From: a virus
Length of the DNA: 64,000 bases
Strand: one strand, 5' to 3'
IMG/VR virus record: IMGVR_UViG_3300044678_003030
Span: 29,957-93,956 of that record
Part shown: one piece after another, positions 1-44,006 of the stretch
Numbering within the stretch: the stretch's first letter is position 1
Layout of the letters: every line of letters starts with the position of its first letter
Translations under genes and position numbers: made by a program
Notes under the pieces: generated by a model
What the model saw: only the letters and a program-made list of their open reading frames with translations
What the model was told of the DNA's origin: nothing
Database searches by the model: none

Positions 1-855
1 AAGCACTTGGACTCGCCGCATGTTTTTGCGCACGAGTACGGGCACCACCAGTTCGATCAAACACCTATCGGTAGCGCTGTTCAACACCCTGTTTTTCGAG
101 GGATTTCTAACTACGCGAACATCCCGTTGAGCGCTTTGGCGGGAGTTGCCGCTGCTCGTTCTGACAAGAAGTGGGCTCCTTACGTAGGGGCTCTTGCTCC
201 GGTGTTGACTTCGTTGCCAGTTCTCGGCTCTGAGTACATGGCGACGCGGAACGCTATGGGGCTTATGCGCGACGCTGGGGCTTCCACGCAGCAGATCGCT
301 GACAGTAAGAGAGAGCTCGCTGGTGCGTATGGGAGTTACGCGACACAAGCCCTGCTGGCAGCAGCCGCGTACGCCGCGCCGTTTTTGGCGAAGAAGTACT
401 GGCGTACAGCTCCTCCTCCCCCCAGGTGGGGAGACGAGGAGTACATCAGAGGAGGGGAGGAAAATACCAAGGCGGCATCGCTCTTGGATATGGCGCCGAA
501 CTGGGATAGCCCTGTGCGCGCGCGTGTGATTCAGGGAGGGGTAACTGGCGGCGCGGCGGGGCTTCTCGCGGGCATTCCCGTAGGTCTTTTGGCTCCAAGG
601 CTGTATGGTGGTAGCGACGACCGGCTTAGGGGTGTGTTGTCGGCAGCAGGCAGCATGGGGCTATTGGGTATGGGTTCCGGTGCGATAGCAGGCAGCGTTC
701 TTGGTGGTTACGAAGAAGGGCTTCAATACGGGAGTCATCCCGATAAGTACGACTATGACCCGATTGTTCAATACACCTATCCCCCGGACCCGCTCGGGGC
801 GGTAGCCAATAGGCTCGGCGTTCGCGATGGTGAGCGTTTTCGGGGTGCTCGGTGA
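1..855 (+). CDS. Zincin-like (HExxH) metallopeptidase with Gly-rich hydrophobic segments; probably 5'-truncated
   Basis: AHEYGHH motif, then LPVLGSEYMATRNA and AYGSY, resembling neutral zinc metallopeptidases; frame is open from base 1; TKAAS motif precedes a Gly-zipper module. Confidence 0.6.
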   Translation, partial: KHLDSPHVFAHEYGHHQFDQTPIGSAVQHPVFRGISNYANIPLSALAGVAAARSDKKWAPYVGALAPVLTSLPVLGSEYMATRNAMGLMRDAGASTQQIADSKRELAGAYGSYATQALLAAAAYAAPFLAKKYWRTAPPPPRWGDEEYIRGGEENTKAASLLDMAPNWDSPVRARVIQGGVTGGAAGLLAGIPVGLLAPRLYGGSDDRLRGVLSAAGSMGLLGMGSGAIAGSVLGGYEEGLQYGSHPDKYDYDPIVQYTYPPDPLGAVANRLGVRDGERFRGAR

Positions 856-3800
856 GCCACTCCCACCGCTGGTCGTCTTTCTACGTCCCCGGCGACGCCT
901 ATCGGTACTGCGCGTGCGGCGCGATCGAGACGGTCTCGCCGGATGGCGAGCACGGGCCTGTGCCGGCCAAGGAGGAGGGATTCGTCCGTCGCCACATCGA
1001 GCGCCTGGAGAAGAGCGCGGAGGCGCTCAAGAAGACGCTTGGGCCCTTCACCTTCGAGATCGATCGGCCCGAAGGAACTACGAAGGCGTGGCCCGGTGGC
1101 AAGTCCTTTACGTACCCCGTCGACTACGGATTCTTTCCGAAGCTCGAAGGGGAGGACGGGGAGGGACTGGATGCGTTCGTGGGAGATGACCCGCACGGTC
1201 ACCTGGAGTCCTTCCAGAAGCTCAAGCCGAACAAGGACGGCAAGCTCGTCGCCGACGAGACGAAGTACCTGCTCGGCGTGAACGACCGTCAACGCGAGAC
1301 CATCTACAAGCTCTACGGGCGAGAGATCAACGCGCGTCGCGTGTACGACACATGGGAGGCGGTGGAGCGGTCGTTGGCGCGGTTCGAGAAGGAGGCGTCT
1401 GAGCCGGAGGAAACTCCGGTTTGGGAGAAGGACGTTCGCGACGCCGCCGGGGTTGCGCTCGCAGGGCTTGGCGCACGAAGTCTTGCGCATGGGGCTGCGG
1501 AGGACCTGCTAGGCGCGCAGAGGTTCTACCACGGTACTGGTGATGCAGCGGCAGCGGCGATTCGCCGTGATGGCCTTTTGGCTTCAATGGGAGGTAACCC
1601 CAACGGCAGTGCGTCTCTTTCGGGAGTCCAGTCTTACGTAAAGAATTCAAAGGGTCATGTACACGTCGGCACGGGCTTTTTAGGTGCGCAGGCGGCTCGC
1701 GGCTACGCCTCGCTCGTGGATGCCAAGGAGCGTAATCCGCTTCTTTCCAACGAAGGCGCAATGTACGCGTACCTGCGTGGGATGGGCCCTGGGCACAAAG
1801 GCACTGTTCTTCAGGGCGCTGTCCCGTACGAGTGGCTCTCCAGCAACTTTTCACCGGACCCTGATAGCGGCGGTAGCAGCGCTGCCCTCAAGGGGCAGGT
1901 GGACATCGGAGCCTCCCACATTTCAGACGGCGCCGTAGGTCTTCGAGACCTCTACAAGAATCGAGCTCCTGACCTCCTTGGGTACGTGAAGCGCAACCCA
2001 CGTCGTGTTGCGCATGGCGCCTTGATGGCCGGAGGGTCTTTGGCCGCTGTGTACGCTGCATATCGACTGGCCAAGATGATCCAGGACCGACACAGTAGCC
2101 CAGAGCAGGAGCCTGTTGTGGAAGCAAAGCTCGGAGCTGCCGATGCCCCCTCGAATCTTCTCGGACTCGTGGGCACGCCTCAGTACTACCTGACGCGCGC
2201 CGCTGACTTCCGTCGCCGACACCCTGATCTCCGCGCTCCTGACTACTACAACGAGTACGGCGATCGCTACGCCCACCGCTTCGAGAGCCAGACTCGTCCT
2301 CGGCTCTCTCCGGCCGGGCAGGCGTGGTTCGACAAGACCAAGCACGGCCTTCAGTATGCGATCGAGCAGAAGCGCCTCGAAGACCCTGAAGGGTTCGACG
2401 CCCTTGAGCGTGACCCCAAGGCGTTCCACCGCTTCGCGTACGACACGCACGGCCCGGTGTACCTGAACTCAGGGATTCGCAAGCTGCCGCTGCGCGACCT
2501 CATGCGCGTGGCGCGCACGCCAGACCTCAAGGATGTCATCAACCGAGATGGTCTACGTCTTGTGGGGCAGGTCTTGAATCCGTTCAACAAGGCGGCCTCG
2601 GTCAAGGAGGCGCGAGTCCCTACTCATGTGAAGCAGTACCGCCGCGCGCTTCAGATGTTGGCAGAAGGGCAACACGACTTCCACGGCACCGCGAATCTTC
2701 CTGGTGTTGTACGGACCGGTCGTGTTGTTGGCGGGAAGAATGACGCGTACCATACAGGCGGCAAAGCGTACTTTTCGCGCGGTTTTCCACTGGCTGAGTA
2801 CTTTGACTACGAGACCTCGAAGTACAACGATGGAGGGTTCGCCTTCCCTCGTGTACAGATGGACAAGAACAAAGCGGAGATCATTCCGGGGACACCTGCA
2901 ACCTTGCCGGTTCCCTACGTAGCTGCTTGGCACGCCCCCCTTCAACAGGGCGCTACCGTCTTTGTGACGTCTCCCGCTGCGAAAGTGCGCGAGGCAGCAA
3001 GCGCCGCGCAACGTAAGTTCAATCTGCGCCGCGTTGACCCCGAGGCTTACGCCCTCGCCGTTGAGACCCTGAAGGGCAACGTGTCTCCTGGTGCTTCCCA
3101 GCACATACTCAAGAACCTCGAAGGTCCGTATACCCCGGTTATGCCAGCGCCTTCAATTTCCGCCTCCTCTGTTGCAACCCCTCCCGCTGCGCCCTCTGTC
3201 TATTCCATCCTCAATCGCCGCAACGCCGCGATCGCAGGCGGTACCCTCGCCACGGCTGCCGCGCTGTACGGAGGCCACCGTTGGCTTCGTTCACGGCGTG
3301 AAAAGGAACAAGAAAAGGTCGCTGACGCAGTGGAACAAGACCCGTCCGAACAGCCGCCGAAGAAGTCCTGGCTACGTCGCAACGCGGCCCCGATTGCAGG
3401 GCTGACGACGGCAGCGGTAGTTGCACCGCTTCTCTATCGCTACCTGCGTAAGCAGCGACTGAGCAATGACCCCGCACTCCGCTCGATTCAAGAGGCATCG
3501 GGCGGCAGGTTCGGCCGCATCCTTGAAGGGCGGCAAGAGGCGATGTCTGCGCCACGTCGTTGGCTCGACCGATTGATCTACTCAGGTGGCGGCGATGTCC
3601 ACTACCAGGACAACCTCATCGAGGCGGCGCGCAAGAGTGGCAAGGTGCCGCAGGTTGAGGGGGTGCTCCTTCACAACGCGCCAGGGAAGCAGCTTGCACA
3701 GGGGGCCTCAAACCTTATCGCGAATCGTGATTCCGATGCGGTGTCGAGCATCTTTGACAACGGTAACAAGTGGCAGGAGTACAACATCTTCGAGCACTTT

Positions 3801-4862
3801 GCGCCGGGGTCCATGGGAAAGACCGAGAACGTTGCAGACGTTCTCGCTGACATGGGGCACAACCTCGGAGCTCGCAACCCGCGAGAGCGCGGACAGCAGG
3901 TCGAAGCCTTCCGTAAGGCCATGTCCAACAACGGCGCGCGTAGGCGAGACATGCTCGCGGAGCTTCAGAGTAACCTCCGTCAAAGGTTTGGGGACGGCTT
4001 CCTTCTCAAGGACGTCGACGCTGCTGCTACGGGGGGGAAGTTCCCCTCGGATCTGCACAACTTCACAGATCTTGTGAACGAGGATTCGCCTGCGGCGAAG
4101 ACTCTGATCAACGCGATCAAGGATCCGCGAAGTGTGATCGCGCAGTCGAAGCTGCCGCTCGCTCAAGGATCGTGGCTCGACCGGCAGTTTGCCAAGCTCC
4201 GTGGCCTGCCATCTACGCAGGAAGTTCGTGTCCATGTGATGAACGGTGCGGTCGCCCCGGACCTCACAGTGCCGCGCTTCTCTCCGACGATGTGGCTCAC
4301 CGGACGAAAGACGATGCGCGGCGCGGACCAGTACGCGCGTGATCTGCTTACGAAGTTGCCCGAGGAGCTTCAGCGCGGGACGTATGCGATGGACGTCGCA
4401 CCGCTCGTGGGTGGCGGGTACAAACTCATTGAGTCTAATCCTGGTTACCGTAGTGGTTTCTTGAGCCCCGGTAACCATCCGGTAATCGGACCTCTTCTGC
4501 ACAAGCAGTTCACTGGCCAGCACAGCCAAATGGTTTCTGGCCTTGGTGCCGGCGCGGGCGCTGTTGGCGGAGGGCTTACGGCAGCGGCTGGTGCGCGGTA
4601 CCTCGCCAACCGGCAGCAGCCGGAGCAAGAGTCTGAGCTTCACGGCGTGAAACAAGCCAGCGCCTTCGACGCCCTCAACTGGGTCCCCGCTCCTTTCCAG
4701 GGGCGCGTGCAGTCCCCGCAAGAAATCGTCTACGCCGCGCGCTCTACCCCTGCTCTCGCGGCGACACAGGAGAACCTTCGGCTGCTTCAGGTCGCCCAGG
4801 ACCCCTACGGCACCGGGTCTCCGACGCAGGGCGTCTCTCACCATCGACGTCATCACGGCTAG
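852..4862 (+). CDS. Polyvalent multi-domain protein: PPase-like, ART-like, unknown, second ART-like and ATP-grasp domains
   Basis: YPVDYGFFPKLEGEDGEGLDAFV (family I PPase-like); RFYHGT..IRRDGL and DFHGT (ADP-ribosyltransferase-like); NKW..FLLKD..QEVRVHV..AMDV..LIESNP (ATP-grasp); domains separated by K-x-A motifs and hydrophobic helices. Confidence 0.7.
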   Translation: MSHSHRWSSFYVPGDAYRYCACGAIETVSPDGEHGPVPAKEEGFVRRHIERLEKSAEALKKTLGPFTFEIDRPEGTTKAWPGGKSFTYPVDYGFFPKLEGEDGEGLDAFVGDDPHGHLESFQKLKPNKDGKLVADETKYLLGVNDRQRETIYKLYGREINARRVYDTWEAVERSLARFEKEASEPEETPVWEKDVRDAAGVALAGLGARSLAHGAAEDLLGAQRFYHGTGDAAAAAIRRDGLLASMGGNPNGSASLSGVQSYVKNSKGHVHVGTGFLGAQAARGYASLVDAKERNPLLSNEGAMYAYLRGMGPGHKGTVLQGAVPYEWLSSNFSPDPDSGGSSAALKGQVDIGASHISDGAVGLRDLYKNRAPDLLGYVKRNPRRVAHGALMAGGSLAAVYAAYRLAKMIQDRHSSPEQEPVVEAKLGAADAPSNLLGLVGTPQYYLTRAADFRRRHPDLRAPDYYNEYGDRYAHRFESQTRPRLSPAGQAWFDKTKHGLQYAIEQKRLEDPEGFDALERDPKAFHRFAYDTHGPVYLNSGIRKLPLRDLMRVARTPDLKDVINRDGLRLVGQVLNPFNKAASVKEARVPTHVKQYRRALQMLAEGQHDFHGTANLPGVVRTGRVVGGKNDAYHTGGKAYFSRGFPLAEYFDYETSKYNDGGFAFPRVQMDKNKAEIIPGTPATLPVPYVAAWHAPLQQGATVFVTSPAAKVREAASAAQRKFNLRRVDPEAYALAVETLKGNVSPGASQHILKNLEGPYTPVMPAPSISASSVATPPAAPSVYSILNRRNAAIAGGTLATAAALYGGHRWLRSRREKEQEKVADAVEQDPSEQPPKKSWLRRNAAPIAGLTTAAVVAPLLYRYLRKQRLSNDPALRSIQEASGGRFGRILEGRQEAMSAPRRWLDRLIYSGGGDVHYQDNLIEAARKSGKVPQVEGVLLHNAPGKQLAQGASNLIANRDSDAVSSIFDNGNKWQEYNIFEHFAPGSMGKTENVADVLADMGHNLGARNPRERGQQVEAFRKAMSNNGARRRDMLAELQSNLRQRFGDGFLLKDVDAAATGGKFPSDLHNFTDLVNEDSPAAKTLINAIKDPRSVIAQSKLPLAQGSWLDRQFAKLRGLPSTQEVRVHVMNGAVAPDLTVPRFSPTMWLTGRKTMRGADQYARDLLTKLPEELQRGTYAMDVAPLVGGGYKLIESNPGYRSGFLSPGNHPVIGPLLHKQFTGQHSQMVSGLGAGAGAVGGGLTAAAGARYLANRQQPEQESELHGVKQASAFDALNWVPAPFQGRVQSPQEIVYAARSTPALAATQENLRLLQVAQDPYGTGSPTQGVSHHRRHHG
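3290..3302. promoter_or_regulatory. TTCAC-N3-GTGAA site
   Basis: TTCACGGCGTGAA. Confidence 0.85.
4639..4651. promoter_or_regulatory. TTCAC-N3-GTGAA site
   Basis: TTCACGGCGTGAA. Confidence 0.85.
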
Positions 4863-32677: not shown

Positions 32678-34435
32678 TCAGCCCGTGGCGAGGAGCTCGC
32701 GCAGGCGAGAGTCGCGGTTGGACGGGGGAGCCGCGAGGATCTGCTGGAGTGCAGCGACCTTCTGCGACTCGGTCCAGCCGACCGGGAGCGCGCTGCCGTA
32801 GGCGGCGGCGACCTTGCTGAAGGACGCCATGTAGCTCGCGTCCGCAGCCTTCTTGTCTTCGCGCGCGACGACGTTGTCGGCGTTGACGAAGGGCACGCCG
32901 GCGCGCGGAGCCTGGACGACAGTCTCCGGGGTCGACGGTGCGCTCACGGGAGCCTTGCCCTGCGCGTTCTCGGCGTAGCCTGCGGGGCGCTGCTGCTTCT
33001 CCACCGCCGCGAGCTCGTCCGTCTTTGCGGCGTCGGCGACCGTGTTGGGGCCGTGCGGGGTGAGCGAGCCAGCTCCGGCGAGCTTGAGCTTCGAGGCGAA
33101 GGTCTGCGGGTTGCGACGCGCAGCAGCGGTCTTCGCGAACTCGGTCTTGACGAGCCACCGCGTCTCAGCCGAGGCGCACTTGGTGAGCGCATCGCGGTTG
33201 TCGGCGAACACACTGCGCAGGAGCGCGCTGGCGTCGGCGGCGGTCTTCGCGACGTGCGCGACGTGCGCGAGCACCTCCTGCCCCTGCGGGTGGTCCATGA
33301 GCCCGGCGACGGCAGCCTGGGACTCATCGTCCTCGGGGGCGAGGGACTTGAGCTTCTCCCAGATCATCTGGAGCAGCGCGGTCTGCTCGTCAGCGGGCGC
33401 CCCTTCGGCGGGCATGGGCGGCTCCGCGTCAGTCAGACCTTCGGCCGGGTTGCCGTCCCCGAACTCCGTGTCCTCACCACCGGCCAGCTTGTTGCCGAGC
33501 GCCGCAGCGGCGAGCTTGGTCGCCTGCCGCTCCGCCTTGTAGGCGTTGTAGTTGACGCTCGCGACCTTGGCGTACTCGCGAGCGGTGCTCGCGACAGCCG
33601 GGACCTGCTTGGCGATCTGCTCGTCGGTCGCGATCTTGATCAGCCGATCCGCGAGGAAGCCGATCACACCGGCCTGCGGCGCCTTGCCCATGGACGCAAC
33701 CTTGACGAGCGCGTCCTGGTCCTCCTTCTTGAGCGTCGCCATCGCGGCCTTGACGTGCGCGTCGTTGAGCGCCGCGAACACGGGCGTCATGAACCCAGCA
33801 GCGGCGACCTTGGCCACGCGCTCCTCCACACCGGCCTGCTTGAGCCCCACGTAGAGGCGCTCGGCGGCGGCCTTGGCGCTCTGGTCAGTGAGCGAGTTCG
33901 CGATCATCGGCGAGATCTCTGGCCGGGCCGGGTCAGCGATTTCCTTGGGGCCGGTGATGCCAGGAGCAGGGAGAAGCGTGTCGGCGCCCTGCGGCTGCTC
34001 GGCGTAGCCGACGGGGCGTTGCGAGATCTCCAGGGCCGCCATCGCGTCTGTGTTGGCCGCGTCGATCAGCGTGTTGGGACCCGCCTCGGTGAGCGATCCG
34101 GCGCCCGCCTGCTTGAGCATGCGGTCGATCCAGAAGTTCGAGGCGGCGCCAGCGCGGCCACAAAGGTCTTCGACCGAAGCCGTCTTGGTTCGGCCTTGCG
34201 GCGCGTGACCCATCTTCGAGAGGTTGGTTGCAGCCTCAATGAGGCGAGCCTCGATCTCCAGCGCCGCCTCCTTGGGGAGCAGCTCGGTGACGATCTCGGG
34301 GCCGCTCCACTCCTGGGAGATCTGCTCGATCGCAGCGGCGGCGACCTTCTCGTTCGGCCACCCCGGGTGGCGACCTGCGTCACTCGACGCTTCGTTGATG
34401 CCGGTGATGAGAGTACGGATCGCGAGGTTGCTCAT
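32678..34435 (-). CDS. K-x-A-rich internal head protein with duplicated ~43-aa module
   Basis: About 20 K-x-A motifs; GAGSLT..GPNT..DAA.TD..AA.E..QRP.GYAE..QG twice. Confidence 0.7.
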   Translation of the reverse strand: MSNLAIRTLITGINEASSDAGRHPGWPNEKVAAAAIEQISQEWSGPEIVTELLPKEAALEIEARLIEAATNLSKMGHAPQGRTKTASVEDLCGRAGAASNFWIDRMLKQAGAGSLTEAGPNTLIDAANTDAMAALEISQRPVGYAEQPQGADTLLPAPGITGPKEIADPARPEISPMIANSLTDQSAKAAAERLYVGLKQAGVEERVAKVAAAGFMTPVFAALNDAHVKAAMATLKKEDQDALVKVASMGKAPQAGVIGFLADRLIKIATDEQIAKQVPAVASTAREYAKVASVNYNAYKAERQATKLAAAALGNKLAGGEDTEFGDGNPAEGLTDAEPPMPAEGAPADEQTALLQMIWEKLKSLAPEDDESQAAVAGLMDHPQGQEVLAHVAHVAKTAADASALLRSVFADNRDALTKCASAETRWLVKTEFAKTAAARRNPQTFASKLKLAGAGSLTPHGPNTVADAAKTDELAAVEKQQRPAGYAENAQGKAPVSAPSTPETVVQAPRAGVPFVNADNVVAREDKKAADASYMASFSKVAAAYGSALPVGWTESQKVAALQQILAAPPSNRDSRLRELLATG

Positions 34436-35397
34436 GCGGGGTTCCTTTGCGGAGAGTAGTCTAGGCGAGGATGGGAATCTCCCGTGGGCGCAGGGGCCTT
34501 GGACAGGAGCTTACGCCCACCATGAATGGCGGCGCCGGAGAGGAGTAGCGCGCTTACGGGGTTCTGCTTCACGGCATCGATGACAAAGCCTTTGAGATCT
34601 GCCGTCTTCGGGGGAAGCATCTGCTGCACGGGTTGCTGCACGGGTTGCTGCACGGGTTGCTGCACGGGTTGCTGCACGGGTTGCTGCGGGGCCTTGGGAT
34701 CGAACTTCGACCCAACCCACTGGCCGAGCTGCTGGATCGGTTGCTGAATCAGGACAGCTCCGGGGATACCGAGGCGCGAGGTCAACGGTGCTGCGGCGAG
34801 CCCGGCGACCATGCCACCGATGTTGCGCCCAAGGTTGGTTCGGCCCTGGCGCGCGATACGGGCGGCGTTCATTGCAGGCCCGAGCAGGCCCAAGGCCGTA
34901 CCGAGCGGGTTGCCCCGGGGGACGTAGAAGTCACGCGCCATTCCCAGGTAGCCCTTTTCCCGAAACTGACGGTCGAGGGCGAGCGGCGAGCCGAAGACGT
35001 TTTCCCTGAGCCCTTCGCCGACGACATGTCCGACGTTTTTGGCCCACCCGCCAAAGCCCTTGCCGTATCCTATCGCGGCAGGCATGAACGAGGCGCCGTT
35101 CGGTTGGATGACCTTGCCATCCATCTTGAAGGCGCGATTCTCCGGCATTCGCATCACGGGTTGATGTGCGCCGTAAGCCTGCATTCCGAGGATGTGCTTG
35201 CCAAAGAAGTTTGGCTGGAAGAATCCGTCTTGTGTGGACCCGGCGAGACGGTTGTGGAGGAACCCTGTTGGGGCCTGCACCTCGGGGGTGCTGTGGAACG
35301 GCAGTCCGTGCTCGTCGAATAGAAAGCGGCCAAACCCCTTGGCTTTTGCCACCACGTCGTCGACGACCGCTGCCTCTTTCACGCCGTGAAATGTCAT
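34432..35397 (-). CDS. Hypothetical protein with hydrophobic segments and QQPV repeats
   Basis: VKEAA, PKTAD; QQPV x5. Confidence 0.65.
   Translation of the reverse strand: MTFHGVKEAAVVDDVVAKAKGFGRFLFDEHGLPFHSTPEVQAPTGFLHNRLAGSTQDGFFQPNFFGKHILGMQAYGAHQPVMRMPENRAFKMDGKVIQPNGASFMPAAIGYGKGFGGWAKNVGHVVGEGLRENVFGSPLALDRQFREKGYLGMARDFYVPRGNPLGTALGLLGPAMNAARIARQGRTNLGRNIGGMVAGLAAAPLTSRLGIPGAVLIQQPIQQLGQWVGSKFDPKAPQQPVQQPVQQPVQQPVQQPVQQMLPPKTADLKGFVIDAVKQNPVSALLLSGAAIHGGRKLLSKAPAPTGDSHPRLDYSPQRNPA
34622..34687. repeat. 12-bp tandem repeat TGCTGCACGGGT x5.5
   Basis: Directly visible; encodes QQPV on the minus strand. Confidence 0.95.
35378..35390. promoter_or_regulatory. TTCAC-N3-GTGAA site
   Basis: TTCACGCCGTGAA. 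Confidence 0.85.
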
Positions 35398-37199
35398 CAG
35401 TAGGTACCGTCCAGCCCCTGCCGCAGTTCAGCGCCGAAAGCGTAGGCAGGCACAGGGTGAACCCCGTGGATGTTCGAGCCGAGGCCCTCAGAAGCCGCGC
35501 GCGAGATTGTACCCTTGAGACCTCGGTGTGCGAGGAGGGCGAGCCAGTCGTCATCCAGCAGCGGGTTTGTCGCCAGAGGCTTCATGACGTGTTCGATCTT
35601 CGGCATGCTACGGCTGACGAGTACCTCTCGGATGCCTTTACGGCTCAGGTCGTTGGCGACTGACGGCGTGATGCGGGTACCGAAGGTGTAATGGAACACC
35701 TCTTGGCCTAGCACCTTCCCGATGGCGTCAGCCAAGGGAACACGAGACACGTCTTTGGCGTAGGTCTCTCGGAGGCGGTTGTAGTTGACCACGTCGCCCT
35801 TGATCAGCTCCGGGTGCGATGGGTCTTGCTCGGAGATGCGGACGTGGTTCAGAACGCTCTTGGCGAGCAGTTCGAAGTGGCGCCTGTCCATCGACACGCC
35901 TTCGTTCTTGTAGACCCCAGCCAGCGAGTTCACAAGGTTCTCCCGAGACGCCCCAATTCCCTTGTAAAGCGTCAGCTTGGCAGGGTGCGGAACTCCGTCT
36001 GTCAGGGAATCACCAGCCTCCACGTGCTGGCCAACCCTCACTTTTACGGAGAGCTCGGGCTGTGAGTAGAGCTTCTCCTTGTCCACCCACACGAAGTGAC
36101 CGCCTTGAGCCGCAGGTTCGATCTTCGTCACGACACCGTCGGCCGGCGCGAGGGTTGCTTCGTGCGCGAACGCCTTGGGGATCTCCAGGAGCTGTCGCAC
36201 TCCCTTGAGCCCCTGTGGGTTCAAATTGCGCTCACGAATCGTGAGCACCGCGTGCTTGGACCCGAGGGCCATCTGCGTAAGCGGCTCGGCGAGCGCATGC
36301 GCAGTACGGATTCCGACGTTCGTCCCAATGGAGTGGAGCTTGCCCTTTTCGTCGAGCCCCATGCACATCTGGCAGACGCCCTGCGTTGCCGTACACGTCA
36401 TAGGGCTGCGTACGGTGAAGTCGACGTCGTTCGCAGCGCGGAACTGCTGAACGACGCGCGGAGTGATCAGGGTGTTGCGCGGGATCTTGTGCTCAGAGAT
36501 GGCAAGGTATCGATCGATCGCGTGTTGATCATCGACGTGCAGGAGGACGCCGTTTTGCGTGCCACAGTCATGCGCGGTGACGACCTTGGAAGATGTGTTG
36601 GCGATGAGGAGCTTTGCCATCTCACCGGGTTGAGACACAGAGACGACGGACGCGACGTTGTTGGCGCGTGCTTCAGGCGCGACTTCCCAGTACTCAGCCG
36701 GCGAGAGACCCTCGGCATAGGAGTGCCGCACAAGGAAGGAACCGATGCCACGCCCAGGCAGGTTTGACGCGAGAGGGGTCGCGACGATCTTCATGAGCTG
36801 AGACGGGTTGCCGCGTGCCCCCGAGAGCGCCATGTGAGTCATTGACCCGGGGTGGCTCTTGGTCTGCGCCAAGAGCTGCGTCTGTGCTCCGATGACGAGC
36901 TTCTCCCTCTTGGTCGGGTCCTTCTCCGCAGCCAGAGCGTCGGCGACGTTGTTCATGATCGCGTCGCGCTCTTTGTAGAGCGGCCTTACGTCAGACACGC
37001 CGACGGTGATGCCTTCCAAGGTCGCGATCTCGTCGCCGCGCTTCTTGAGCTTCTGGATCGTCTCGACGTACTTCTGCGGGTCGGACTTCGCGAGCCCTAC
37101 GACATGGTCATGAAGCTGCCGCTGGGTCATCGGCCCTGAGACCTTGTACCCATCGGGCAACACGTTGTTGACCAGCAGATGTCCAATTGTTGTGGGCAT
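35397..37199 (-). CDS. rpoC: Phage multisubunit RNA polymerase, beta' C-terminal part
   Basis: SGARGN, SYAEGLS..EYW, DCGT, RSPMTC..GVCQMC, VGI..A.ALAEPLTQMAL..H (trigger loop), QGL..V..LLE, RHFELL; start 37199 or 37220. Confidence 0.9.
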   Translation of the reverse strand: MPTTIGHLLVNNVLPDGYKVSGPMTQRQLHDHVVGLAKSDPQKYVETIQKLKKRGDEIATLEGITVGVSDVRPLYKERDAIMNNVADALAAEKDPTKREKLVIGAQTQLLAQTKSHPGSMTHMALSGARGNPSQLMKIVATPLASNLPGRGIGSFLVRHSYAEGLSPAEYWEVAPEARANNVASVVSVSQPGEMAKLLIANTSSKVVTAHDCGTQNGVLLHVDDQHAIDRYLAISEHKIPRNTLITPRVVQQFRAANDVDFTVRSPMTCTATQGVCQMCMGLDEKGKLHSIGTNVGIRTAHALAEPLTQMALGSKHAVLTIRERNLNPQGLKGVRQLLEIPKAFAHEATLAPADGVVTKIEPAAQGGHFVWVDKEKLYSQPELSVKVRVGQHVEAGDSLTDGVPHPAKLTLYKGIGASRENLVNSLAGVYKNEGVSMDRRHFELLAKSVLNHVRISEQDPSHPELIKGDVVNYNRLRETYAKDVSRVPLADAIGKVLGQEVFHYTFGTRITPSVANDLSRKGIREVLVSRSMPKIEHVMKPLATNPLLDDDWLALLAHRGLKGTISRAASEGLGSNIHGVHPVPAYAFGAELRQGLDGTY

Positions 37200-37209
37200 T
37201 GAATGTGTG

Positions 37210-38037
37210 CTACCGAACAAATGCGTTCAGTTGTTGTACGTAGGAGGATTGTGGACCCGGCAGTCTGAGCGAAGCATCAAGCCGTGGCAGCGCCATGGCT
37301 TCGTTGCCAGGGGTCAGCCCCCGCCAACGTCCCAACTGCTTGGTCGCGGAGTCGACCGCGACTTGACGCTTCGCTGCGCTGGCGAGTGCGGGGGCTGCGT
37401 TGACCGCTTGCGTGGCTTTCCCGATCCCGTCTGCCATGTAGTGTCGGAAGTTCAACAGCCGGTTTGTTGATACATCTGGGTTTTTTGCGCTGTTGAGAAT
37501 CTTGTTCTGAACCCAGGCGCTGCTGACGGCCGTCTTGGTTGTGCGCCCCTTCAGTTTGATGCCAAGCTGCTTGAGAAGCCCAGGAGCGACGACAGGGGCC
37601 GCAGCCTTGTTGAAGCCGAACACGCTTCGAAGTGACGCGAGCTTGGACGCCTCGACGTGCGAAGGTTCCTGATTCGGGATGTTGCTCGGAAGTGGTGCGG
37701 CGTACGCAAAGAGCTGCCGTGGTGTGTTCATCCCGCTGTAGACTCCGTAGCCGAGACCCGCGAGGCCGCCGATAACGCCGCCGAGGTCTTTGCCTGCCGG
37801 GTTGTCGAGGAGGTTGCCGAGGGCCATTCCCGCCCCAACGCCTGCGGGTGTTGCGAGCGCAGAGACTCGTGCGCCGCGCTTGAACTTCTCCCACGCCGTA
37901 GGGTTCGACATCATGACCGTAATCAGCCGTCGATCCTCCGGCGTGCCGGGTTGATCCTCGTACCCATGTGTTGACGCAACCCCGGGCGGCACGTCATTGG
38001 CGGTCTTCGTGAAGCCGAATACGATGTCGAGGTTCAT
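37210..38037 (-). CDS. K-x-A-containing protein with Gly-zipper module
   Basis: VFGFTKTA, SKLAS, VFGFNKAA, TKTA; probable start MNLDIV. Confidence 0.55.
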   Translation of the reverse strand: MNLDIVFGFTKTANDVPPGVASTHGYEDQPGTPEDRRLITVMMSNPTAWEKFKRGARVSALATPAGVGAGMALGNLLDNPAGKDLGGVIGGLAGLGYGVYSGMNTPRQLFAYAAPLPSNIPNQEPSHVEASKLASLRSVFGFNKAAAPVVAPGLLKQLGIKLKGRTTKTAVSSAWVQNKILNSAKNPDVSTNRLLNFRHYMADGIGKATQAVNAAPALASAAKRQVAVDSATKQLGRWRGLTPGNEAMALPRLDASLRLPGPQSSYVQQLNAFVR

Positions 38038-38041
38038 CAGG

Positions 38042-38989
38042 TCACCAGTCGAATGGTACAGGGATCGTGGCTTCGATCTCAGATCCACGGCTTCCGGCCT
38101 CGCCACGCCTCTTGCGCAACACCGACTTGGCCTTGCCGTTCTCGTCGAATCCGAAGTCTGTCTTCTGTAGCACGTCGATGAGCGGCTGGAGCGGGTCCGC
38201 TGCGCTGGTCTTCACCGCGTGAAAACCGAAGACTTCATCGAAGGAAGCCAGCTTCGCCGGAAGTTGCAGGGGTTGGGTACGCGCTTTGACTCCGAGCAGT
38301 GCCTTCGTCTCAGGGTCTAGCTCGGCTTCGACATTGTCCGCCGTGGACTTACTCCCCAGGATCTGTCCCTTGAGGTAGTAGCCGAGCCCAGGGATTCCTT
38401 CTGTGACGACGTGCGGCAGTCCTTGGATAAGAGCCTTGGTTTTGCCAATGCGCCGTGCCAGCATTGTCGCCGCTGGGTGGGCGTCTTCGTGCATCGTCCA
38501 GTTGTCGCCGTGCGAGTGGAGATGAAAGAGGTTGTCCGGGTGCCTGTACGTCCTGAACTCGTCCTGTCCCTTTTCAGGCACTGCAATCAGGACAGACTCG
38601 AACCCGAGGTTTTGGACGTCATCTCGCGAGATATGGCTCTTGGGGATGAGCACACGCTTGTGCCCGGTACCCGCGTAAACACCCTTGGTGCGAAGAAGAT
38701 TCGCGTAGTTGTCGAAGCGGGCCTGAACTTCAGGTGAAACATCGGCGAGCTTCTCGGGGTTCGCCCTAGCAGCGTCTTCGAACTTCCCCTTGAGGTCGTA
38801 GAACCCCGGCGAGGGGTCCACGTAGAACCCCCGTCGCTTCATCTTTCGGCGAGTCTCAACAGGCTGTCCCGCTGCGAGCTTGCAGACGAGGGTACTGGCT
38901 TCGTAGGGGTGCACGCTGGAAGGGTAATGCAGGTCAGCCGATTTCGACGGGGTCGTCGACTTTGACTTCGCCGCGACGCCATGCCGCAA
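38042..38989 (-). CDS. Hypothetical protein with His-rich motif
   Basis: FHLHSHGDNWTMHEDAHP; CKLAA, EKLAD, AKLAS, VFGFHAVKTSA; start uncertain. Confidence 0.55.
   Translation of the reverse strand: MRHGVAAKSKSTTPSKSADLHYPSSVHPYEASTLVCKLAAGQPVETRRKMKRRGFYVDPSPGFYDLKGKFEDAARANPEKLADVSPEVQARFDNYANLLRTKGVYAGTGHKRVLIPKSHISRDDVQNLGFESVLIAVPEKGQDEFRTYRHPDNLFHLHSHGDNWTMHEDAHPAATMLARRIGKTKALIQGLPHVVTEGIPGLGYYLKGQILGSKSTADNVEAELDPETKALLGVKARTQPLQLPAKLASFDEVFGFHAVKTSAADPLQPLIDVLQKTDFGFDENGKAKSVLRKRRGEAGSRGSEIEATIPVPFDW
38211..38223. promoter_or_regulatory. TTCAC-N3-GTGAA site
   Basis: TTCACCGCGTGAA. Confidence 0.85.
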
Positions 38990-41900
38990 CGGCTTCGGCC
39001 TCAGTCTTGAATCGACGCACAGGTTGCGCCTTGTTGGGCGTGTACTTGAGCGCGTGCGTGATCCCGATGATCGCCTCGTGCTGCGGAAACGCCATCAGCT
39101 TGTTGGGCGTCTGGTCGGAGAGCAGCAGGTGGGACATTGTCATGCGCTTGGCGTCGTCGATACCTGCGCGGGTGAGCGGTACGTGAACCTGAAGGGTGTC
39201 ACCGTCGTAGTCCAGGTTGAAGCCCTTCTCCACGAAGGGCGAAACCCTGATCGTCTTCCCCATCGTCGGCTGTGCGTACGCGGCGACGATGCCGAAGCGG
39301 TGGAGCGTCGGCGCGCGGTTCAGTAGCACAGGCCGCTCCTTGGTCTCTTCCACGAGGCATTGCTTCGCAGCAGGCGCCCGCTTGTCGACGAGCTCTCGTG
39401 CGTGAAGCGCGCTGTAGCCCTTGCGCACCAGTCGAGCGACCAGGAGCTTGTCGAACATCTGCCAGAGCATGTCTTCAGGCAGGCTCACAGCGTCCATGTG
39501 CAGGTTGCCGTCAGGCACCGCCGTACCACGGCCAGAGACGTCTTGCTGCCTCTTCATCAGCTTGCGCTGGAAGAAGCCACCCTTTGGTGACCCTTGCCCA
39601 GAGACCTGAGTCAAGAACCCCTTGACCTCCTCCTTCTGGAGCTTCTGGTCGTCGACGGTGTGGGTCCCGAACACGGCTCCAACGGCGTTGTAGAGCGCAG
39701 CCCGGTGCTTCGGAACGTCCGAGTCAAGGACGGCGTCCTTGACGGCGTCGTTCACGTCCATGAGATGCCCGTAGAGCTTGTTCGCATCGGCGACCATGAG
39801 CTGAGACGGGTTGTTCTTCTGCTGCGTGATCGGGCGGAAGATCGGCGGAATCACAGGCACCTTCGAGAGTACGTAGGCGTTCTCCGGTCGGAGCCCCTCG
39901 GCCTTGAGGGCGCGTAGGTACTTGATCTGCTTCACCGCGTTGTTCAAGTCGCTCGCCTTGAGCATCGGCAGCTTGCCCTCAAGCTCCTTGAGTTTGGCGT
40001 CGATGTTGATGCTCGCGAGCTCCTTCTTGATGTGCCCGCCGCCCTTCTCCTTGAGGAGGTCGGTGAACCGCTTCTCGGTCAGTCCGAGGAGGCGCCGAAT
40101 CGGCTCCTCAAACACCGGGTTGGGCATGGCCTCGTGAAGGTCCACGTGGGAGTAGAGCGTGCCCTCGGTGCCGCCCGTGAGGAAGGGGTCAAACAGCCCG
40201 CCCTTTTCGGGCTTGAGGTTCTTGGCGATGAGGGTCTTGCTGTTTTGCACAGCACCCGAAGAGCGCGCCATGATGTCAGCGTCCGTCGCCGGCAGCAGGC
40301 GGAACTTGGAGCCATCCTTGCGGACCTTGACTCCCGCGCCTTCGAGCATCGCCTGGAACTTGTTGAAAGCGAACGACGGACGGTTCGCCGGGAGGGGCTG
40401 TCCGAGCTGAATCGCGCGCCAGAACGCCTCGTTCTTCTGCCCTCGGATGTTGGCGGCGTCGGAGAGCATTCCGCGTGCGTTGTGCGCCAGCAGCGCATCC
40501 ACCTCCATCTTGCCGAGGCCCTTGGCGCCTTCTTCGCCACCCTGCTTGAGGGGCTGCTCGTTGGCGTCGTAAGGGCCGACACCGTGGCCCGCGAAGTTTG
40601 TGTCCGTCGACTTGAAGAGCTTGAAGATGAAGCTCCGACCCACGAACACACCTTGTCCGTCAGGGCCGACGATCTTTCGGCCGCTCACAGGGTCGTGTAC
40701 GTGTTCGTACCCGCTGACGTTGTGCTCCTTGGCGAGCCTCTCGACCCAGTCGATGGCGTTCTCGGACGACGCGTTGTCGAAGAAGATCGGCTTCTTGGTC
40801 TTCTCCGCGATCTTACCCGCCAGAGCCTCGTGGAGCTGCGCCGGGTTGATGCGGGAGACCACGCCCGCGCTCGTCATCAGTAGCTCAACAGGATTGCCTG
40901 CGGAGTCTTTGATCATCTCCTTGTCGGAGACGATCTTGGCGACCACGCCTTTCCCGCCGAAGCGGTTCGCCAGCTTGTCGCCGACCTGCATCTGCTCGTG
41001 GGTCTTCACGAGGACCGCGATCTGCGTCGGGGTACGCACGACGTCGACGACTTCTCCCTGCGTCCCATGCTCCCAGGACAGGGAGACTTCCTGCCAGGGC
41101 TTGGTGAGCGTCTTGGAGATCTTGCCGAGCATCAGGTCGGTGCCGGTGACCTGTGCCTTGGCGAGTCCTGCGACGAGGAGGTCGTGGTGGTTTACCTTCG
41201 CCCCCTTCTTCACGACGCCGGTTTCGTCGAGCTGCGCATACTGCGAGGGTTGGTACTTCGCGCCGAAGTAGACCTTGTGGCGCTTCGCCGAGAGCTCGAT
41301 CGTCGCGTTGAGCGGAAAGACCTCGCGGTACATGTGCTCGGAGGTCATTCGCTTGGCGAAGCCCTCGCTGATCACCACGGCGTCGTTGGAGTTCAGCCCG
41401 TAGTAGGGCATGTACGCGACACGCGCGTTGAGCCCTGACGCGAGCGTGCCGTTGCGCGTGAAGTTCGAGTCGCCGAGCATCTGCCCCATCTCGACGGTGT
41501 CGTTGGCCTTCACCGAGAGGGTGTGGTGCAGGCGCGTCTTCGAGGGGAAGGGGAAGTTGTCGCTGTAGGGGACCTTGATGAGCTCACGCTCGCGACGGGC
41601 CGCTTCTTTCACCGAGTGAACCTCGGCCGGGCTCGGGTTTTCCCACGGGGCGTAGCCGTGCATAAACCACTCACCGAGCGAACCCGTATTGAGATCATCA
41701 AGGCTGTCATCATGCGTAAGCTGCGGGGGCAGGACACCGTACACCACATCAGCGGCTAGCCGGGGGAGACGCTTGCCGGCAGAGGCCAACGCACCATCCG
41801 CGCCAGGGTAATTGAACATGTACCGAACGTCGCGCCCGGCCAGCCCTGCGTTCATTGCGGCGTGGTTTGCCCAGATGCGCCCGTAGCTCGCCGTCTTCGA

Positions 41901-44006
41901 CCCCTTCCGGTAGTCCTCGATCTCTTCCTTGAGATCATCCCAGGAGGCGTACTCGACGCGGTTGACACAGCGAGTCTTCGGCTTGCGCTCGATCTGACGC
42001 AGGACCGTGTCGACCTTCTCCATGGGGACGCCGACGATGAACTTCACATCGGCCGGCTTCCACTCACCATCTTCGTTCTGTTCGTCGGTGTCGACGGAGA
42101 CCAGGGCGCCGTCAGGGTCGTCACCGACCCAGAAGTCCAGGGAGTCGCCATCAGGGCCTTCGAAGCCCGGGAGGTAGCCATAGTCGCAGGGGAAGGGATG
42201 ACCCCAGGGCTTCTCGCCCTTCTCGATCTCGATTTCGAAGGTGAAGGGCCCGTGCTTCTTGGACTGCGCCACCGGGCGGTCCGCGAGCTTCTCTTCCTCT
42301 GCGGCCCTCTTGGCGCGGCGCGGCTCAATGTAGATGAACCCGTGTTCGATCTTGCGCACAATGCCGCTCACGGGCGCGAGCGGCACAACCATGCGGCCGT
42401 AGAAGTCCTCATAGGACCCCCCGTCCGGGTGTTTGACCTGCACCAAGGGCGCCTCCCGCTGAAGCAGTGGCAGACCCTGTGTCTGCATCTTGGAGCCCAT
42501 GATCGCACGGTTCCCCTGGATCGAGTGCAGGAGAGGGATCAGGCTCGTGGCCGGCGAGTAGGTGTGCGAGACGTGGAGCTGCTGATAGTCAACGTCCTTG
42601 GCGTCGACCTTCTGGACCTGCCCTTGGTGAAGCGCGTCTACACGCCCCTGCATGCGCTGATGCGGGAAGGCGATGACTTTGCTCATCATGTCCGAGGCGT
42701 TCACGAACTCGGTCTTGTTGGTCCGTGCGTTCCTGAGCGGTGTGTAGAGGTTGCCCTCTTCGTCTCGGTGAGCGGCGATCGTGGCGCGGATGTCGACGCC
42801 TGCGTGGCCGCTCTCTGGCGTGCGGATCGGGTCGAGGATGCCGAAGTGCGTCGCGTGCGTGAGGCGTGTTGAAAAAGGGATCGCGCGCTCACTGGGAATG
42901 CCGCCCTCTCCGAGCGCTGTGACCTTCACCGAGTGATCGAGGAGCTCAAGCGGGTTGATTCCCGTGGGCACCGCTGAAAGGGCGCTCGACGTGATGAACT
43001 GGCGCAGCGGCTGGGAGAAAGGAGCTGGCTTGAGAGAGCCTCGGATCTCCTGCTTGCCGTTGAGCGCCATGCGAGCCTTCGGAGCCCATTCGCGCGCGGT
43101 GAGCTTCACGCGCTCTGCGAGAAAGTCGTCCACGCTGTGGAATGTCTTGAACGCGAGCGAGTCGGCGTCGTCCTCCGGGTCTTGACCCCTGTGCACGCGG
43201 AGCAGCTTTTGCGCTGCGGCGAGGAGCGCAGGCGGGGTGACCTTGTCGTGTGACGCCCCGAGCGTGATGCGCGTGACGTGCGCGTCCATCACGGTGTTTC
43301 CGAAGCGCTTGATGACCTCTGCGAGCTTCTCGGTGTGGCTCGCCTTGGCATTGAACACGGACTCGTGCGCGAGCTTTTGGTAGAGCTTCGCGATCGAGAT
43401 CTCCTCCTTGCCGCCGAAGAGCGCCTTGTTGGCGTCAGCGATGGGAGCGCCGAGCTCGCGCGCGATGACCTCATGGGTGACCCCGAGGGCGCGTAGCACA
43501 GGGTAGAGCGGGATGTTCGTCGAGTCGTAGACGAGGTAGAACGCTGACTTCGCCGGGTCGATCGTGACGTTGAAGTTCGCACCCTTGGAGAGGTTGAACG
43601 TCGTGTGCAGCTCCCCGTTCGCGCTCCGCTGCGTGTACGCGCCAGGACGGCGACGCAGCATGTTCGCGATCTGGTACTCGTTGCCGTCCATCAGGATGGT
43701 GTGGCGTTCGGAGAACCACGGGAGGTGCGTGAGGGTGAAGTTGCGCGCCTCGTTGACGATCTTCCCGTCGCCGTCTTTCAGGACGAGCGTCCCCTTCACG
43801 GGCTCAGAGAGCGAGTCGCCGGTGAGGAGCGCGTGCTTCTGCTCCTCAGGGGAGAAGTCTCGCGCGAGCACCTTGATGTCCTTGACCTCCAGGGTGCGAC
43901 CCTTGAGATCGACGGGGAATGCGCGTTCGAGCTCCCTGACGACTTTCCCGCGCACATTTTCGCGCAGCGAGTGGGCGTCGGTGAGTACAGGTGACAGGAC
44001 AGGCAT
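38934..44006 (-). CDS. rpoB: Phage multisubunit RNA polymerase, beta fused to beta' N-terminal part, with PPase-like insertion
   Basis: beta: HFGILDPIRTPESG, NRAIMGSKMQTQ, NSNDAVVIS, GDKLANRFGGKGVV, SRIN, GLGKMEVDAL; beta': KPEKGGLF, VPVIPPIFRP, LLNRAPTLHR, catalytic FNLDYDGD. Confidence 0.92.
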   Translation of the reverse strand: MPVLSPVLTDAHSLRENVRGKVVRELERAFPVDLKGRTLEVKDIKVLARDFSPEEQKHALLTGDSLSEPVKGTLVLKDGDGKIVNEARNFTLTHLPWFSERHTILMDGNEYQIANMLRRRPGAYTQRSANGELHTTFNLSKGANFNVTIDPAKSAFYLVYDSTNIPLYPVLRALGVTHEVIARELGAPIADANKALFGGKEEISIAKLYQKLAHESVFNAKASHTEKLAEVIKRFGNTVMDAHVTRITLGASHDKVTPPALLAAAQKLLRVHRGQDPEDDADSLAFKTFHSVDDFLAERVKLTAREWAPKARMALNGKQEIRGSLKPAPFSQPLRQFITSSALSAVPTGINPLELLDHSVKVTALGEGGIPSERAIPFSTRLTHATHFGILDPIRTPESGHAGVDIRATIAAHRDEEGNLYTPLRNARTNKTEFVNASDMMSKVIAFPHQRMQGRVDALHQGQVQKVDAKDVDYQQLHVSHTYSPATSLIPLLHSIQGNRAIMGSKMQTQGLPLLQREAPLVQVKHPDGGSYEDFYGRMVVPLAPVSGIVRKIEHGFIYIEPRRAKRAAEEEKLADRPVAQSKKHGPFTFEIEIEKGEKPWGHPFPCDYGYLPGFEGPDGDSLDFWVGDDPDGALVSVDTDEQNEDGEWKPADVKFIVGVPMEKVDTVLRQIERKPKTRCVNRVEYASWDDLKEEIEDYRKGSKTASYGRIWANHAAMNAGLAGRDVRYMFNYPGADGALASAGKRLPRLAADVVYGVLPPQLTHDDSLDDLNTGSLGEWFMHGYAPWENPSPAEVHSVKEAARRERELIKVPYSDNFPFPSKTRLHHTLSVKANDTVEMGQMLGDSNFTRNGTLASGLNARVAYMPYYGLNSNDAVVISEGFAKRMTSEHMYREVFPLNATIELSAKRHKVYFGAKYQPSQYAQLDETGVVKKGAKVNHHDLLVAGLAKAQVTGTDLMLGKISKTLTKPWQEVSLSWEHGTQGEVVDVVRTPTQIAVLVKTHEQMQVGDKLANRFGGKGVVAKIVSDKEMIKDSAGNPVELLMTSAGVVSRINPAQLHEALAGKIAEKTKKPIFFDNASSENAIDWVERLAKEHNVSGYEHVHDPVSGRKIVGPDGQGVFVGRSFIFKLFKSTDTNFAGHGVGPYDANEQPLKQGGEEGAKGLGKMEVDALLAHNARGMLSDAANIRGQKNEAFWRAIQLGQPLPANRPSFAFNKFQAMLEGAGVKVRKDGSKFRLLPATDADIMARSSGAVQNSKTLIAKNLKPEKGGLFDPFLTGGTEGTLYSHVDLHEAMPNPVFEEPIRRLLGLTEKRFTDLLKEKGGGHIKKELASINIDAKLKELEGKLPMLKASDLNNAVKQIKYLRALKAEGLRPENAYVLSKVPVIPPIFRPITQQKNNPSQLMVADANKLYGHLMDVNDAVKDAVLDSDVPKHRAALYNAVGAVFGTHTVDDQKLQKEEVKGFLTQVSGQGSPKGGFFQRKLMKRQQDVSGRGTAVPDGNLHMDAVSLPEDMLWQMFDKLLVARLVRKGYSALHARELVDKRAPAAKQCLVEETKERPVLLNRAPTLHRFGIVAAYAQPTMGKTIRVSPFVEKGFNLDYDGDTLQVHVPLTRAGIDDAKRMTMSHLLLSDQTPNKLMAFPQHEAIIGITHALKYTPNKAQPVRRFKTEAEAVAAWRRGEVKVDDPVEIG
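41608..41620. promoter_or_regulatory. TTCAC-N3-GTGAA site
   Basis: TTCACCGAGTGAA; at the edge of the RNAP insertion. Confidence 0.85.

Follow-up and report, generated by a model that had tools for sequence, protein, structure and literature searches.

General Features of the Head Module

The stretch of DNA analyzed here, positions 29,957 to 93,956 of the IMG/VR virus record IMGVR_UViG_3300044678_003030 (64 kb, hereafter the window), is the end of one contig of 93,956 bp with a GC content of about 63%; it carries a phage head module with a predicted prohead protease and a group of proteins rich in the tripeptide K-x-A (lysine, any residue, alanine). The head block occupies the minus strand between 46.5 and 21.1 kb and is represented, in this order, by genes for the portal protein, a fusion of the RNA polymerase (RNAP) beta subunit with the N-terminal part of beta', two small open reading frames (ORFs), the C-terminal part of beta', ORFs that could not be annotated, the protease, small scaffold-like ORFs and the capsid protein. 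Tail genes are located downstream of the block, and replication genes, namely, those for SNF2 helicase, ParB-like and sigma-like proteins, nuclease, primase and PolA, beyond 46.5 kb. Searches against PHROGs and Pfam gave nothing for most of the head ORFs, and no GenBank phage had a nucleotide match to the head module, which has no close nucleotide relative there.

Two cultured phages, Salmonella phage Arash (OQ632216) and Bacillus phage G (JN638751), to both of which the window phage is only distantly related, were used for comparison. The head block of Arash is syntenic with that of the window at approximately 29–35% identity, with E-values of 2e-96 for the portal protein, 6e-159 and 1e-79 for the RNAP pieces, 4e-48 for the protease and 9e-57 for the capsid protein. 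A previous reading of the window made without database searches (the sequence-only reading) had proposed that a protease specific for K-x-A releases many separate cargo domains inside the capsid.

Prohead Protease

The protease ORF (24358–26226, minus strand) encodes 622 amino acid residues (aa) and matches phrog_18299, head maturation protease, with an E-value of 1.2e-5. It consists of an N-terminal catalytic domain (aa 44–255; 25462–26097, minus strand), recognized from an AlphaFold2 model and a fold match, and a 367-aa extension, rich in K-x-A and containing a Gly-rich hydrophobic segment. The model, which covers aa 1–300, has a mean predicted local distance difference test score of 75.6, with values above 85 over most of aa 50–255. 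The best fold match of the domain, at the top of 584 chains, was gp21 of phage T4 (5JBL_A; Z 10.2, root-mean-square deviation (rmsd) 2.8 Å, 128 residues). Herpesvirus proteases came next (aa 57–257, Z from 9.0 to 6.5), those of varicella-zoster virus (VZV, 1VZV) and pseudorabies virus (PRV, 4V08) with Z 9.0 and rmsd 2.8 Å over 115–121 residues. Foldseek alone gave weak matches of the model, the best with E 0.0098. For the 622-aa ORF, no Pfam-A family was detected at E ≤ 0.1, and a profile of 31 protease sequences produced only chance-level matches to PDB sequences, 5JBL not being among them. Accordingly, the protease is a fold-level relative of gp21 and of herpesvirus assemblin, located outside their curated sequence families.

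The candidate catalytic residues are S183 (25678–25680, within VSMGC) and H131/H132 (25831–25836), which are invariant in 31 homologues and follow one another in the order His-then-Ser. The cluster C193-x2-C196...C207-x-H209 (25600–25650) is nearly invariant in the homologues; H209, itself nearly invariant and 26 residues after S183, belongs to this cluster, which from its residues looks like a zinc or other metal site in the protease domain. To our knowledge, T4 gp21 has no such zinc-like Cys–His cluster.

The K-x-A motifs seen around the protease in the sequence-only reading, EKTAS (aa 40–44) and KKVAE (aa 252–256), indeed flank the modeled domain. K41-T-A43 (26098–26106, minus strand), the predicted N-terminal self-processing site, abuts the first fold element, aa 1–42 being predicted as disordered, and K253-V-A255 (25462–25470, minus strand), the predicted C-terminal one, closes the final strand of the domain. 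Of 64 homologues, 52 have K-x-A on the N-terminal side of the catalytic domain, and 53 share K253 and A255. The protease family comprises 4,829 clusters at 50% identity in a search of 1.84 billion representatives. Among the 134 best 50%-non-redundant representatives with landmarks, K-x-A was found upstream of the domain in 131 and downstream in 129, in most of the 134 at a constant distance from the preceding FFDIS motif, and the C-terminal extensions of the representatives contain 930 K-x-A against 391 expected (2.4x).

The homologous protease of phage G, gp19, is unannotated; it contains 8 K-x-A against 2.4 expected, among them sites on both flanks, with EKVAS at the same place as K253-V-A255 of the window. 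The protease of Arash, gp222, contains 7 K-x-A against 3.2 expected and is annotated merely as a 'structural protein'. No protease, motif or processing is described in the published Arash paper and annotation or in the annotation of phage G.

Distribution of the K-x-A Motif in the Window

The K-x-A tripeptides were counted in 54 translated ORFs, each compared with 1000 shuffles of the whole protein; shuffling within blocks of 15 aa served as a local control. Eight adjacent minus-strand ORFs at 22.6–34.4 kb together contain 75 K-x-A, against 22.2 expected from whole-protein shuffles (z 13.0) and 25.0 from block shuffles (z 11.9), and K-x-A-S occurs in them 18 times against 1.3 expected (z 14.1). 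Five are enriched singly, with z 5.0–6.0 in whole-protein and 4.6–5.9 in local shuffles: 23780–24340 (10 against 2.2 expected, z 6.0; local z 5.9), the protease ORF (11 against 3.1, z 5.2), 26226–27650 (12 against 3.2, z 5.5), 28276–29127 (9 against 2.2, z 5.0) and 32678–34435 (21 against 7.2, z 5.8), in the last of which K-x-A-[ASG] is found 18 times against 2.3 expected (z 10.6). ORFs 22662–23075 and 23072–23536 show a weaker signal, and the one in 29139–29843 is not significant alone.

The counts of 21, 12 and 10 that had been reported for 32678–34435, 26226–27650 and 23780–24340 were reproduced on recount. Enrichment beyond composition is restricted to the eight ORFs, the other ORFs named in the sequence-only reading being at chance; in particular, 7–855 (2 K-x-A against 1.1 expected) and 15662–16264 (2 against 1.6), in which that reading placed the motif at domain boundaries, are not enriched. 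Genes of the tail and of replication, described there as poor in K-x-A, are indeed not enriched, but contain it at the chance level, i.e., without depletion. No enrichment was detected in the first 30 kb of the contig, which precede the window.

K-x-A is specific in residue, spacing and orientation. When the 400 possible residue pairs were all scanned without bias at spacings 0–3, it ranked at the top in the head set (84 against 30.3 expected, z 10.4) and was absent from the list of top pairs of the remaining 42 ORFs. Lysines are located inside K-x-A in 75 of 142 cases (53%) in the eight head ORFs, compared with 88 of 875 (10%) elsewhere, and near-variants are not enriched in the head ORFs (KA 0.94x, KxxA 1.17x, AxK 0.85x and RxA 1.09x expectation). 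Motifs of the known maturation proteases, compared with 3.4x for K-x-A, were not enriched in the head ORFs either: the T4-type [LI]-x-E was found 23 times against 22.3 expected, the phiKZ-type [SAG]-x-E 55 against 52.2, A-x-E 35 against 29.1 and the herpes-type [VLI]-x-A-S 4 against 4.3.

The possibility that K-x-A is enriched as a side effect of helices rich in Ala and Lys, of internal repeats or of a DNA signal is extremely remote and largely refuted. It draws on the richness of the enriched ORFs in Ala (up to 21%), on two similar segments in the 585-aa ORF 32678–34435 and on the palindrome TTCAC-N3-GTGAA, 5 of the 25 copies of which encode H-x-V-K and then x-A; however, z exceeds 11 in both whole-protein and local shuffles, only the exact spacing and orientation are enriched, the flanking sequences are diverse, 2 of the 75 sites in the enriched ORFs coincide with a palindrome, and the motif persists in relatives with GC of 31–71% and is found there in 14 unrelated protein clusters. 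The shuffle and spacing tests exclude overall and local composition, repeats and helical periodicity as the cause; Ala/Lys composition, one of the findings by which the sequence-only reading could have been overturned, does not account for the data. Since Ala codons are mixed at the motif sites and the motif is common to relatives across this range of GC, K-x-A acts at the amino acid level.

The palindrome is represented by 25 sites between 3290 and 61118 of the window, one per approximately 2.4 kb. Twelve coding copies read H-x-V-K/N, and 5 of 10 V-K copies run on as K-x-A, a share above the 10% background outside the head ORFs, in small numbers. As a DNA-level source of the motif the palindrome was rejected: it overlaps only 5 of 163 K-x-A sites in all and therefore does not explain them.

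A longer variant, V-F-G-F-x-K-x-A, was found three times in the window, in 26226–27650 (aa 13–20) and in 37210–38106 (aa 29–36 and 162–169).

Capsid Protein

The major capsid protein (21147–22058, minus strand; 303 aa) has the HK97 fold and contains a single K-x-A site, K27-E-A29 (21972–21980), with a predicted propeptide of 29 aa; this site lies within the TKEAE (aa 26–30) correctly placed near the capsid N-terminus by the sequence-only reading. The profile of the protein matches its homologue in phage G, gp27 (6WKK, E 1e-19), and the protein is 35% identical to Arash gp226. Foldseek gave 341 matches at E ≤ 0.001, and every match listed is an HK97-fold capsid or encapsulin protein. Of 40 distinct homologues, 36 carry K-x-A at the equivalent position, the residue between Lys and Ala being unconstrained (E, L, A, V, T, I, Q, N), and three further homologues have K-x-S or K-x-G; the capsid protein of Arash contains KEA at aa 27.

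K-x-A in Cultured and Uncultured Relatives

A search with the protease ORF yielded 80 IMG/VR loci with 26–47% identity on contigs of up to 215 kb. In 61 non-redundant loci with GC 31–71%, residue pairs were ranked for the ORFs on the protease strand: among 400 gapped pairs, K-x-A was first in 32 loci, among the top 3 in 43 and among the top 10 in 54, whereas in opposite-strand ORFs of the same loci it was found at 0.98x expectation. By the criterion for single ORFs (p < 0.001 and at least 5 sites), 58 of 1255 distinct ORFs of relatives are enriched, against approximately 1.3 expected by chance; all 58 are located on the protease strand, no more than 8.5 kb from the protease, and belong to 14 unrelated sequence clusters. 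In Arash, the motif-rich proteins are gp220 (10 against 2.9 expected), gp223 (8 against 2.9) and gp225 (7 against 1.7). The motif tracks the protease family from phages of Salmonella and Vibrio to the Bacillus-group phage G and metagenomic phages.

This distribution also bears on the view that K-x-A marks lysines for other chemistry, such as cross-linking or modification, or sites of a host protease. HK97-type capsids do use lysine cross-links, and in K-x-A the Lys is invariant and not replaceable by Arg (RxA 1.09x). Nevertheless, this view is very unlikely, since most of the sites are in scaffold-like proteins and not in the shell, and since the sites are fixed at both borders of the protease domain (129–131 of the 134 representatives), are 2.4x enriched in the C-terminal extensions and are tied to the protease gene; tracking of the protease family across hosts and GC 31–71% argues against one host enzyme.

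The extended logo built from the 583 sites of these 58 enriched ORFs of relatives comprises L/M/F/I at −2, E/V/T at −1, K, T/V/I/L/Q, A and S/E/A/Q/G, with Pro, Gly, Asp and Asn avoided at the middle position of K-x-A; the extended form of the site would read hydrophobic-[E/V/T]-K-[T/V/I/L]-A-[S/A/G/E]. With a context matrix derived from the sites of the relatives alone, the head sites of the window outscore its other K-x-A sites (p 1.3e-6). Short leaders of the type M-x(4-9)-K-x-A were found in 73 of 1034 ORFs of relatives and twice in the window (22662–23075 and 34432–35397).

An uncut binding or targeting motif, e.g., a peptide docking to the protease, the scaffold or the inner surface of the capsid, is another reading; statistics and conservation show selection on the motif and not proteolysis. 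Such a role is nonetheless improbable: the motif occurs in 10–20 copies per protein, 10–35 aa apart, unlike a docking signal; the sites bracket the catalytic domain and mark the N-terminal arm of the capsid protein in the manner of the processing sites of T4 gp21 and gp23; and the logo, in which the middle residue is beta-branched, Ala is followed by a small residue and Pro is missing, resembles protease subsites.

In several relatives, the protease gene carries, exactly at the Cys following the catalytic VSMG, an insertion coding for about 365 aa that include Hint and LAGLIDADG domains; by its domain content, the insertion is an active-site intein of the prohead protease. It was found at L005:8360-11398, L064:6255-8993 and L072:9920-13123, as well as at the loci L006, L007, L066, L068 and L073–L078; the protease gene of the window contains no insertion.

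Predicted Processing of Head Proteins

The K-x-A sites are distributed like those of T4, flanking the protease, at the capsid N-terminus, in leaders and in multi-site core proteins, and are therefore read as prohead-protease sites. With good confidence, K-x-A is thus the putative site that the phage's own prohead serine protease (aa 44–255 of 24358–26226) recognizes and cleaves. The part of the sequence-only reading that concerns a prohead protease with a K-x-A rule unlike those of T4 and phiKZ is well supported, indirectly, by specificity, location, fold and conservation. Cleavage would probably fall after Ala, as the P3-x-P1 rules of T4, phiKZ and SPN3US and the x-Ala|Ser sites of herpesviruses suggest by analogy, and because a small residue follows Ala.

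Several points weigh against cleavage at K-x-A by this protease. The cut site after Ala is placed by analogy. The capsid site is not universal, since phage G has R-V-A, and not K-x-A, at the homologous place, and in capsid bodies K-x-A is found at 0.30x expectation, a value confounded by shared ancestry and by the low values of other pairs and therefore set aside. The paper on the virion proteome of Arash mentions neither protease nor processing, and the motif-rich gp220, gp223 and gp225 have 80–100% tryptic coverage in the virion preparation (PMC10585845), which does not suggest their loss from it and speaks for an uncut docking motif. The Arash preparation, for which 116 'virion' proteins are listed, may include lysate or proheads.

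In the proposed processing by the prohead protease, the enzyme would be built into the prohead via its scaffold-like C-terminal extension and, once active, would free itself at K41-T-A43 and K253-V-A255. It would then take the 29-residue propeptide off the HK97-fold capsid protein and leaders of 9 to 36 residues off several head proteins. The scaffold and core proteins, i.e., the 186-, 585-, 474-, 283-, 137- and 154-aa ORFs together with the protease's own C-terminal extension, would be shredded to peptides of about 10–35 residues able to exit the shell. A few larger pieces would be kept inside, namely, three Gly-rich hydrophobic segments, the 160-aa core of 29139–29843 and parts of the 933-aa protein.

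On the assumption that every K-x-A site in the eight enriched ORFs is used, the predicted digest comprises 83 pieces (median length 23 aa), of which 71 are no longer than 40 aa and 8 have at least 70 aa: the catalytic domain of 212 aa, two hydrophobic pieces rich in Gly (153 and 134 aa), the 160-aa core and four pieces of 77–89 aa. By analogy, this pattern looks like degradation of scaffold and core, as with T4 gp22, rather than release of folded cargo. The many cargo domains envisaged in the sequence-only reading are mostly not supported; weak support for polyprotein cargo comes from a few larger fragments rich in glycine, from the 933-aa protein and possibly from 852–4862.

Individual Proteins of the Head Module

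All ORFs of this section up to 37210–38106 are on the minus strand. Directly downstream of the protease gene, an Ala-rich scaffold-like protein of 186 aa with 10 K-x-A is encoded (23780–24340), the predicted fragments of which have 3–35 aa. The following gene, 23418–23780, was overlooked by longest-ORF calling, being hidden under a spurious 380-aa ORF; its coding signs are a GC content of 0.79 at the third codon position against 0.50 at the second and an ATG overlapping the stop of the upstream gene. It encodes a Gly-rich hydrophobic protein of 120 aa with KGA (aa 16–18) and KSA (aa 25–27) ahead of the Gly-rich body. The small ORF 23072–23536 contains 4 K-x-A against 1.1 expected (p 0.012) and, as judged from GC by codon position, probably starts at M35 (23434), the first 34 codons being non-coding-like. 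The 137-aa protein 22662–23075 (5 K-x-A against 2.0 expected) has a 9-aa leader, MNDLHEKIA|S, and four more sites.

Upstream of the protease gene, 26226–27650 encodes a protein of 474 aa with 12 K-x-A in the first 321 aa, followed directly after KTA by a Gly-zipper C-terminal piece of 153 aa; a weak match to Gly-zipper_YMGG was detected at aa 333–375. Gly-rich hydrophobic glycine-zipper segments are represented three times on the minus strand, at 23418–23780, 26226–26684 and 24577–24978, each shortly after K-x-A.

The 283-aa protein 28276–29127 has 9 K-x-A about 30 aa apart. In its family (11 homologues, mean identity 26%), the Lys of the motif is conserved at 55% compared with 17% for other Lys, and the Ala at 58% compared with 27% for other Ala, while x varies. 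Elsewhere, the positions of K-x-A drift, with the density maintained. The 234-aa protein 29139–29843 has sites at aa 34, 194 and 207 with a 160-aa core between them (K-x-A-[ASG] 2 against 0.3 expected, p 0.026). In the conserved head-module protein of 933 aa (29848–32649), which has weak similarity to Arash gp218, K-x-A is not enriched overall (6 against 4.0 expected); at three of its sites (aa 214, 249 and 536), 6 of 8 homologues retain both Lys and Ala. An Atlas search with this protein yielded no usable match.

In the Ala-rich protein of 585 aa (32678–34435), A, S or G comes next in 18 of the 21 K-x-A. Two similar segments of about 40 aa, aa 108–150 and 451–495 (GAGSLT..GPNT..DAA.TD...QRP.GYAE), both start directly after K-x-A and each head a predicted fragment of about 80 aa; the pair was not reported by a BLAST self-comparison of the protein. 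The 321-aa protein 34432–35397 is not enriched overall (2 K-x-A against 1.7 expected) and has a 9-aa leader, MTFHGVKEA|A. The site of the 298-aa protein 37210–38106 (aa 34–36, FGFTKTAN) has the best context score in the window, 5.7, making this protein a candidate for single N-terminal processing.

Outside the head block, a multi-domain protein of 1336 aa is encoded on the plus strand (852–4862), for which no homologues were found in the viral contigs searched. Regarded earlier as marked by the motif at domain boundaries, it is not enriched (6 K-x-A against 7.9 expected), but three sites match the context well: KSA (1011–1019) and KEA (1389–1397), which flank a pyrophosphatase-like domain (InPase match at aa 67–148), and KQA (4650–4658), with scores of 3.7, 3.8 and 3.3, respectively, compared with 2.7 for the 90th percentile of non-head sites.

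Neighboring Genes

The portal protein (44812–46542, minus strand), at the upstream end of the head block, has 29% identity to Arash gp204 and contains 1 K-x-A against 2.1 expected. The RNAP fusion of beta with the N-terminal part of beta' (38934–44006, minus strand; 1690 aa) carries the Pfam domains Rpb2 and Rpb1 and a pyrophosphatase-like InPase insert at aa 597–664. Its K-x-A sites, which the sequence-only reading had counted in favor of its proposal, are at chance (16 against 11.8 expected), most with negative context scores. The C-terminal part of beta' (35397–37220, minus strand), with Rpb1 domain 5 and, weakly, domain 4, is the homologue of Arash gp216 and contains 1 K-x-A against 3.2 expected; it is a neighbor in the head module, not supported as a substrate. 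In Arash, RNAP subunits are the most abundant virion proteins, and gp216 was found in virions (PMC10585845).

The InPase-like domain, below the Pfam cut-off, occurs twice in the window, in the RNAP fusion and in 852–4862. The replication genes include those of a sigma-70 region-2 protein (50898–51746) and a ParB helix-turn-helix protein (49629–50828); sigma-like gp10 of Arash has been reported from virions (PMC10585845).

Comparison with Known Systems

We know of cleavage rules of prohead proteases for very few phages, and the rules of large phages known to us all involve cutting after Glu. In the full-text literature, with the 2020 paper on the capsid and mass spectrometry of phage G not covered, no K-x-A or Ala-specific phage maturation protease was described; as far as found, the K-x-A rule is apparently an unpublished variant of prohead-protease systems. 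If it is correct and holds across thousands of mostly uncultured lineages, scaffold, propeptide-bearing and packaged proteins could be predicted from sequence. Annotations such as that of the Arash protease would be corrected, and a second specificity class would be available for the comparison of phage and herpesvirus maturation proteases. The prediction is directly testable in Arash, a cultured member. Bacterial sensors of the cyclic oligonucleotide-based antiphage signaling system (CBASS) are triggered when T4 gp21 cuts an I/L-x-E decoy loop (PMC12991175); a K-x-A code would tell what CBASS-type decoys against these phages should look like.

The window system resembles that of T4 in the location of the protease gene in the head module, predicted trimming sites at both ends of the protease, a predicted N-terminal propeptide of the capsid protein, core and scaffold proteins with many sites, short leaders ended by the motif, comparable to the capsid-targeting sequence of T4, and a rule of the P3-x-P1 style. 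Substrates of T4 gp21 (MEROPS S77) are gp22, gp67, gp68, gp23, gp24, IPI–III and Alt. Its rule is (I/L)-x-Glu with the cut after Glu (PMC12991175), whereas the head ORFs of the window are enriched in K-x-A and not in [LI]-x-E. Unlike gp21, the window protease has the Cys3-His cluster and the 367-aa C-terminal extension, and the predicted capsid propeptide has 29 aa.

For gp175 of phiKZ and gp245 of SPN3US, prohead proteases of giant phages with a packaged virion RNAP, the motif is (S/A/G/T)-x-Glu or A-x-Glu (PMC5694885, PMC10052503). Features shared with these phages are a large head, many internal proteins with a short motif, their processing being predicted here, and a multisubunit RNAP, which in the window is encoded in the head module and in the cultured relative Arash is abundant in virions. 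Unlike in phiKZ and SPN3US, the RNAP of the window consists of the beta–beta'N fusion and beta'C, without enrichment in the motif.

Herpesvirus assemblin (MEROPS S21: VZV, PRV, herpes simplex virus, human cytomegalovirus, Kaposi's sarcoma-associated herpesvirus and Epstein–Barr virus) cuts at (V/L/I/Y)-x-Ala|Ser, and its substrates have only one or two sites. The window protease shares its fold, and Ala at P1 with Ser at P1', as predicted by analogy for K-x-A-S, would be the same; the P3 residue is Lys here and hydrophobic in assemblin, and there is no sequence similarity. A tentative and rather doubtful extension of this comparison is that K-x-Ala|Ser is the working code of a vast, little-studied branch of the gp21/assemblin proteases (at least 4,800 clusters at 50% identity, including those of phage G and Arash). 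In that case, the processed head proteome could be read from sequence, including Gly-zipper membrane-active pieces and enzyme modules excised from multi-domain proteins such as 852–4862, Ala|Ser cleavage would be ancestral and the Glu-specific enzymes of T4 and phiKZ would have diverged from it.

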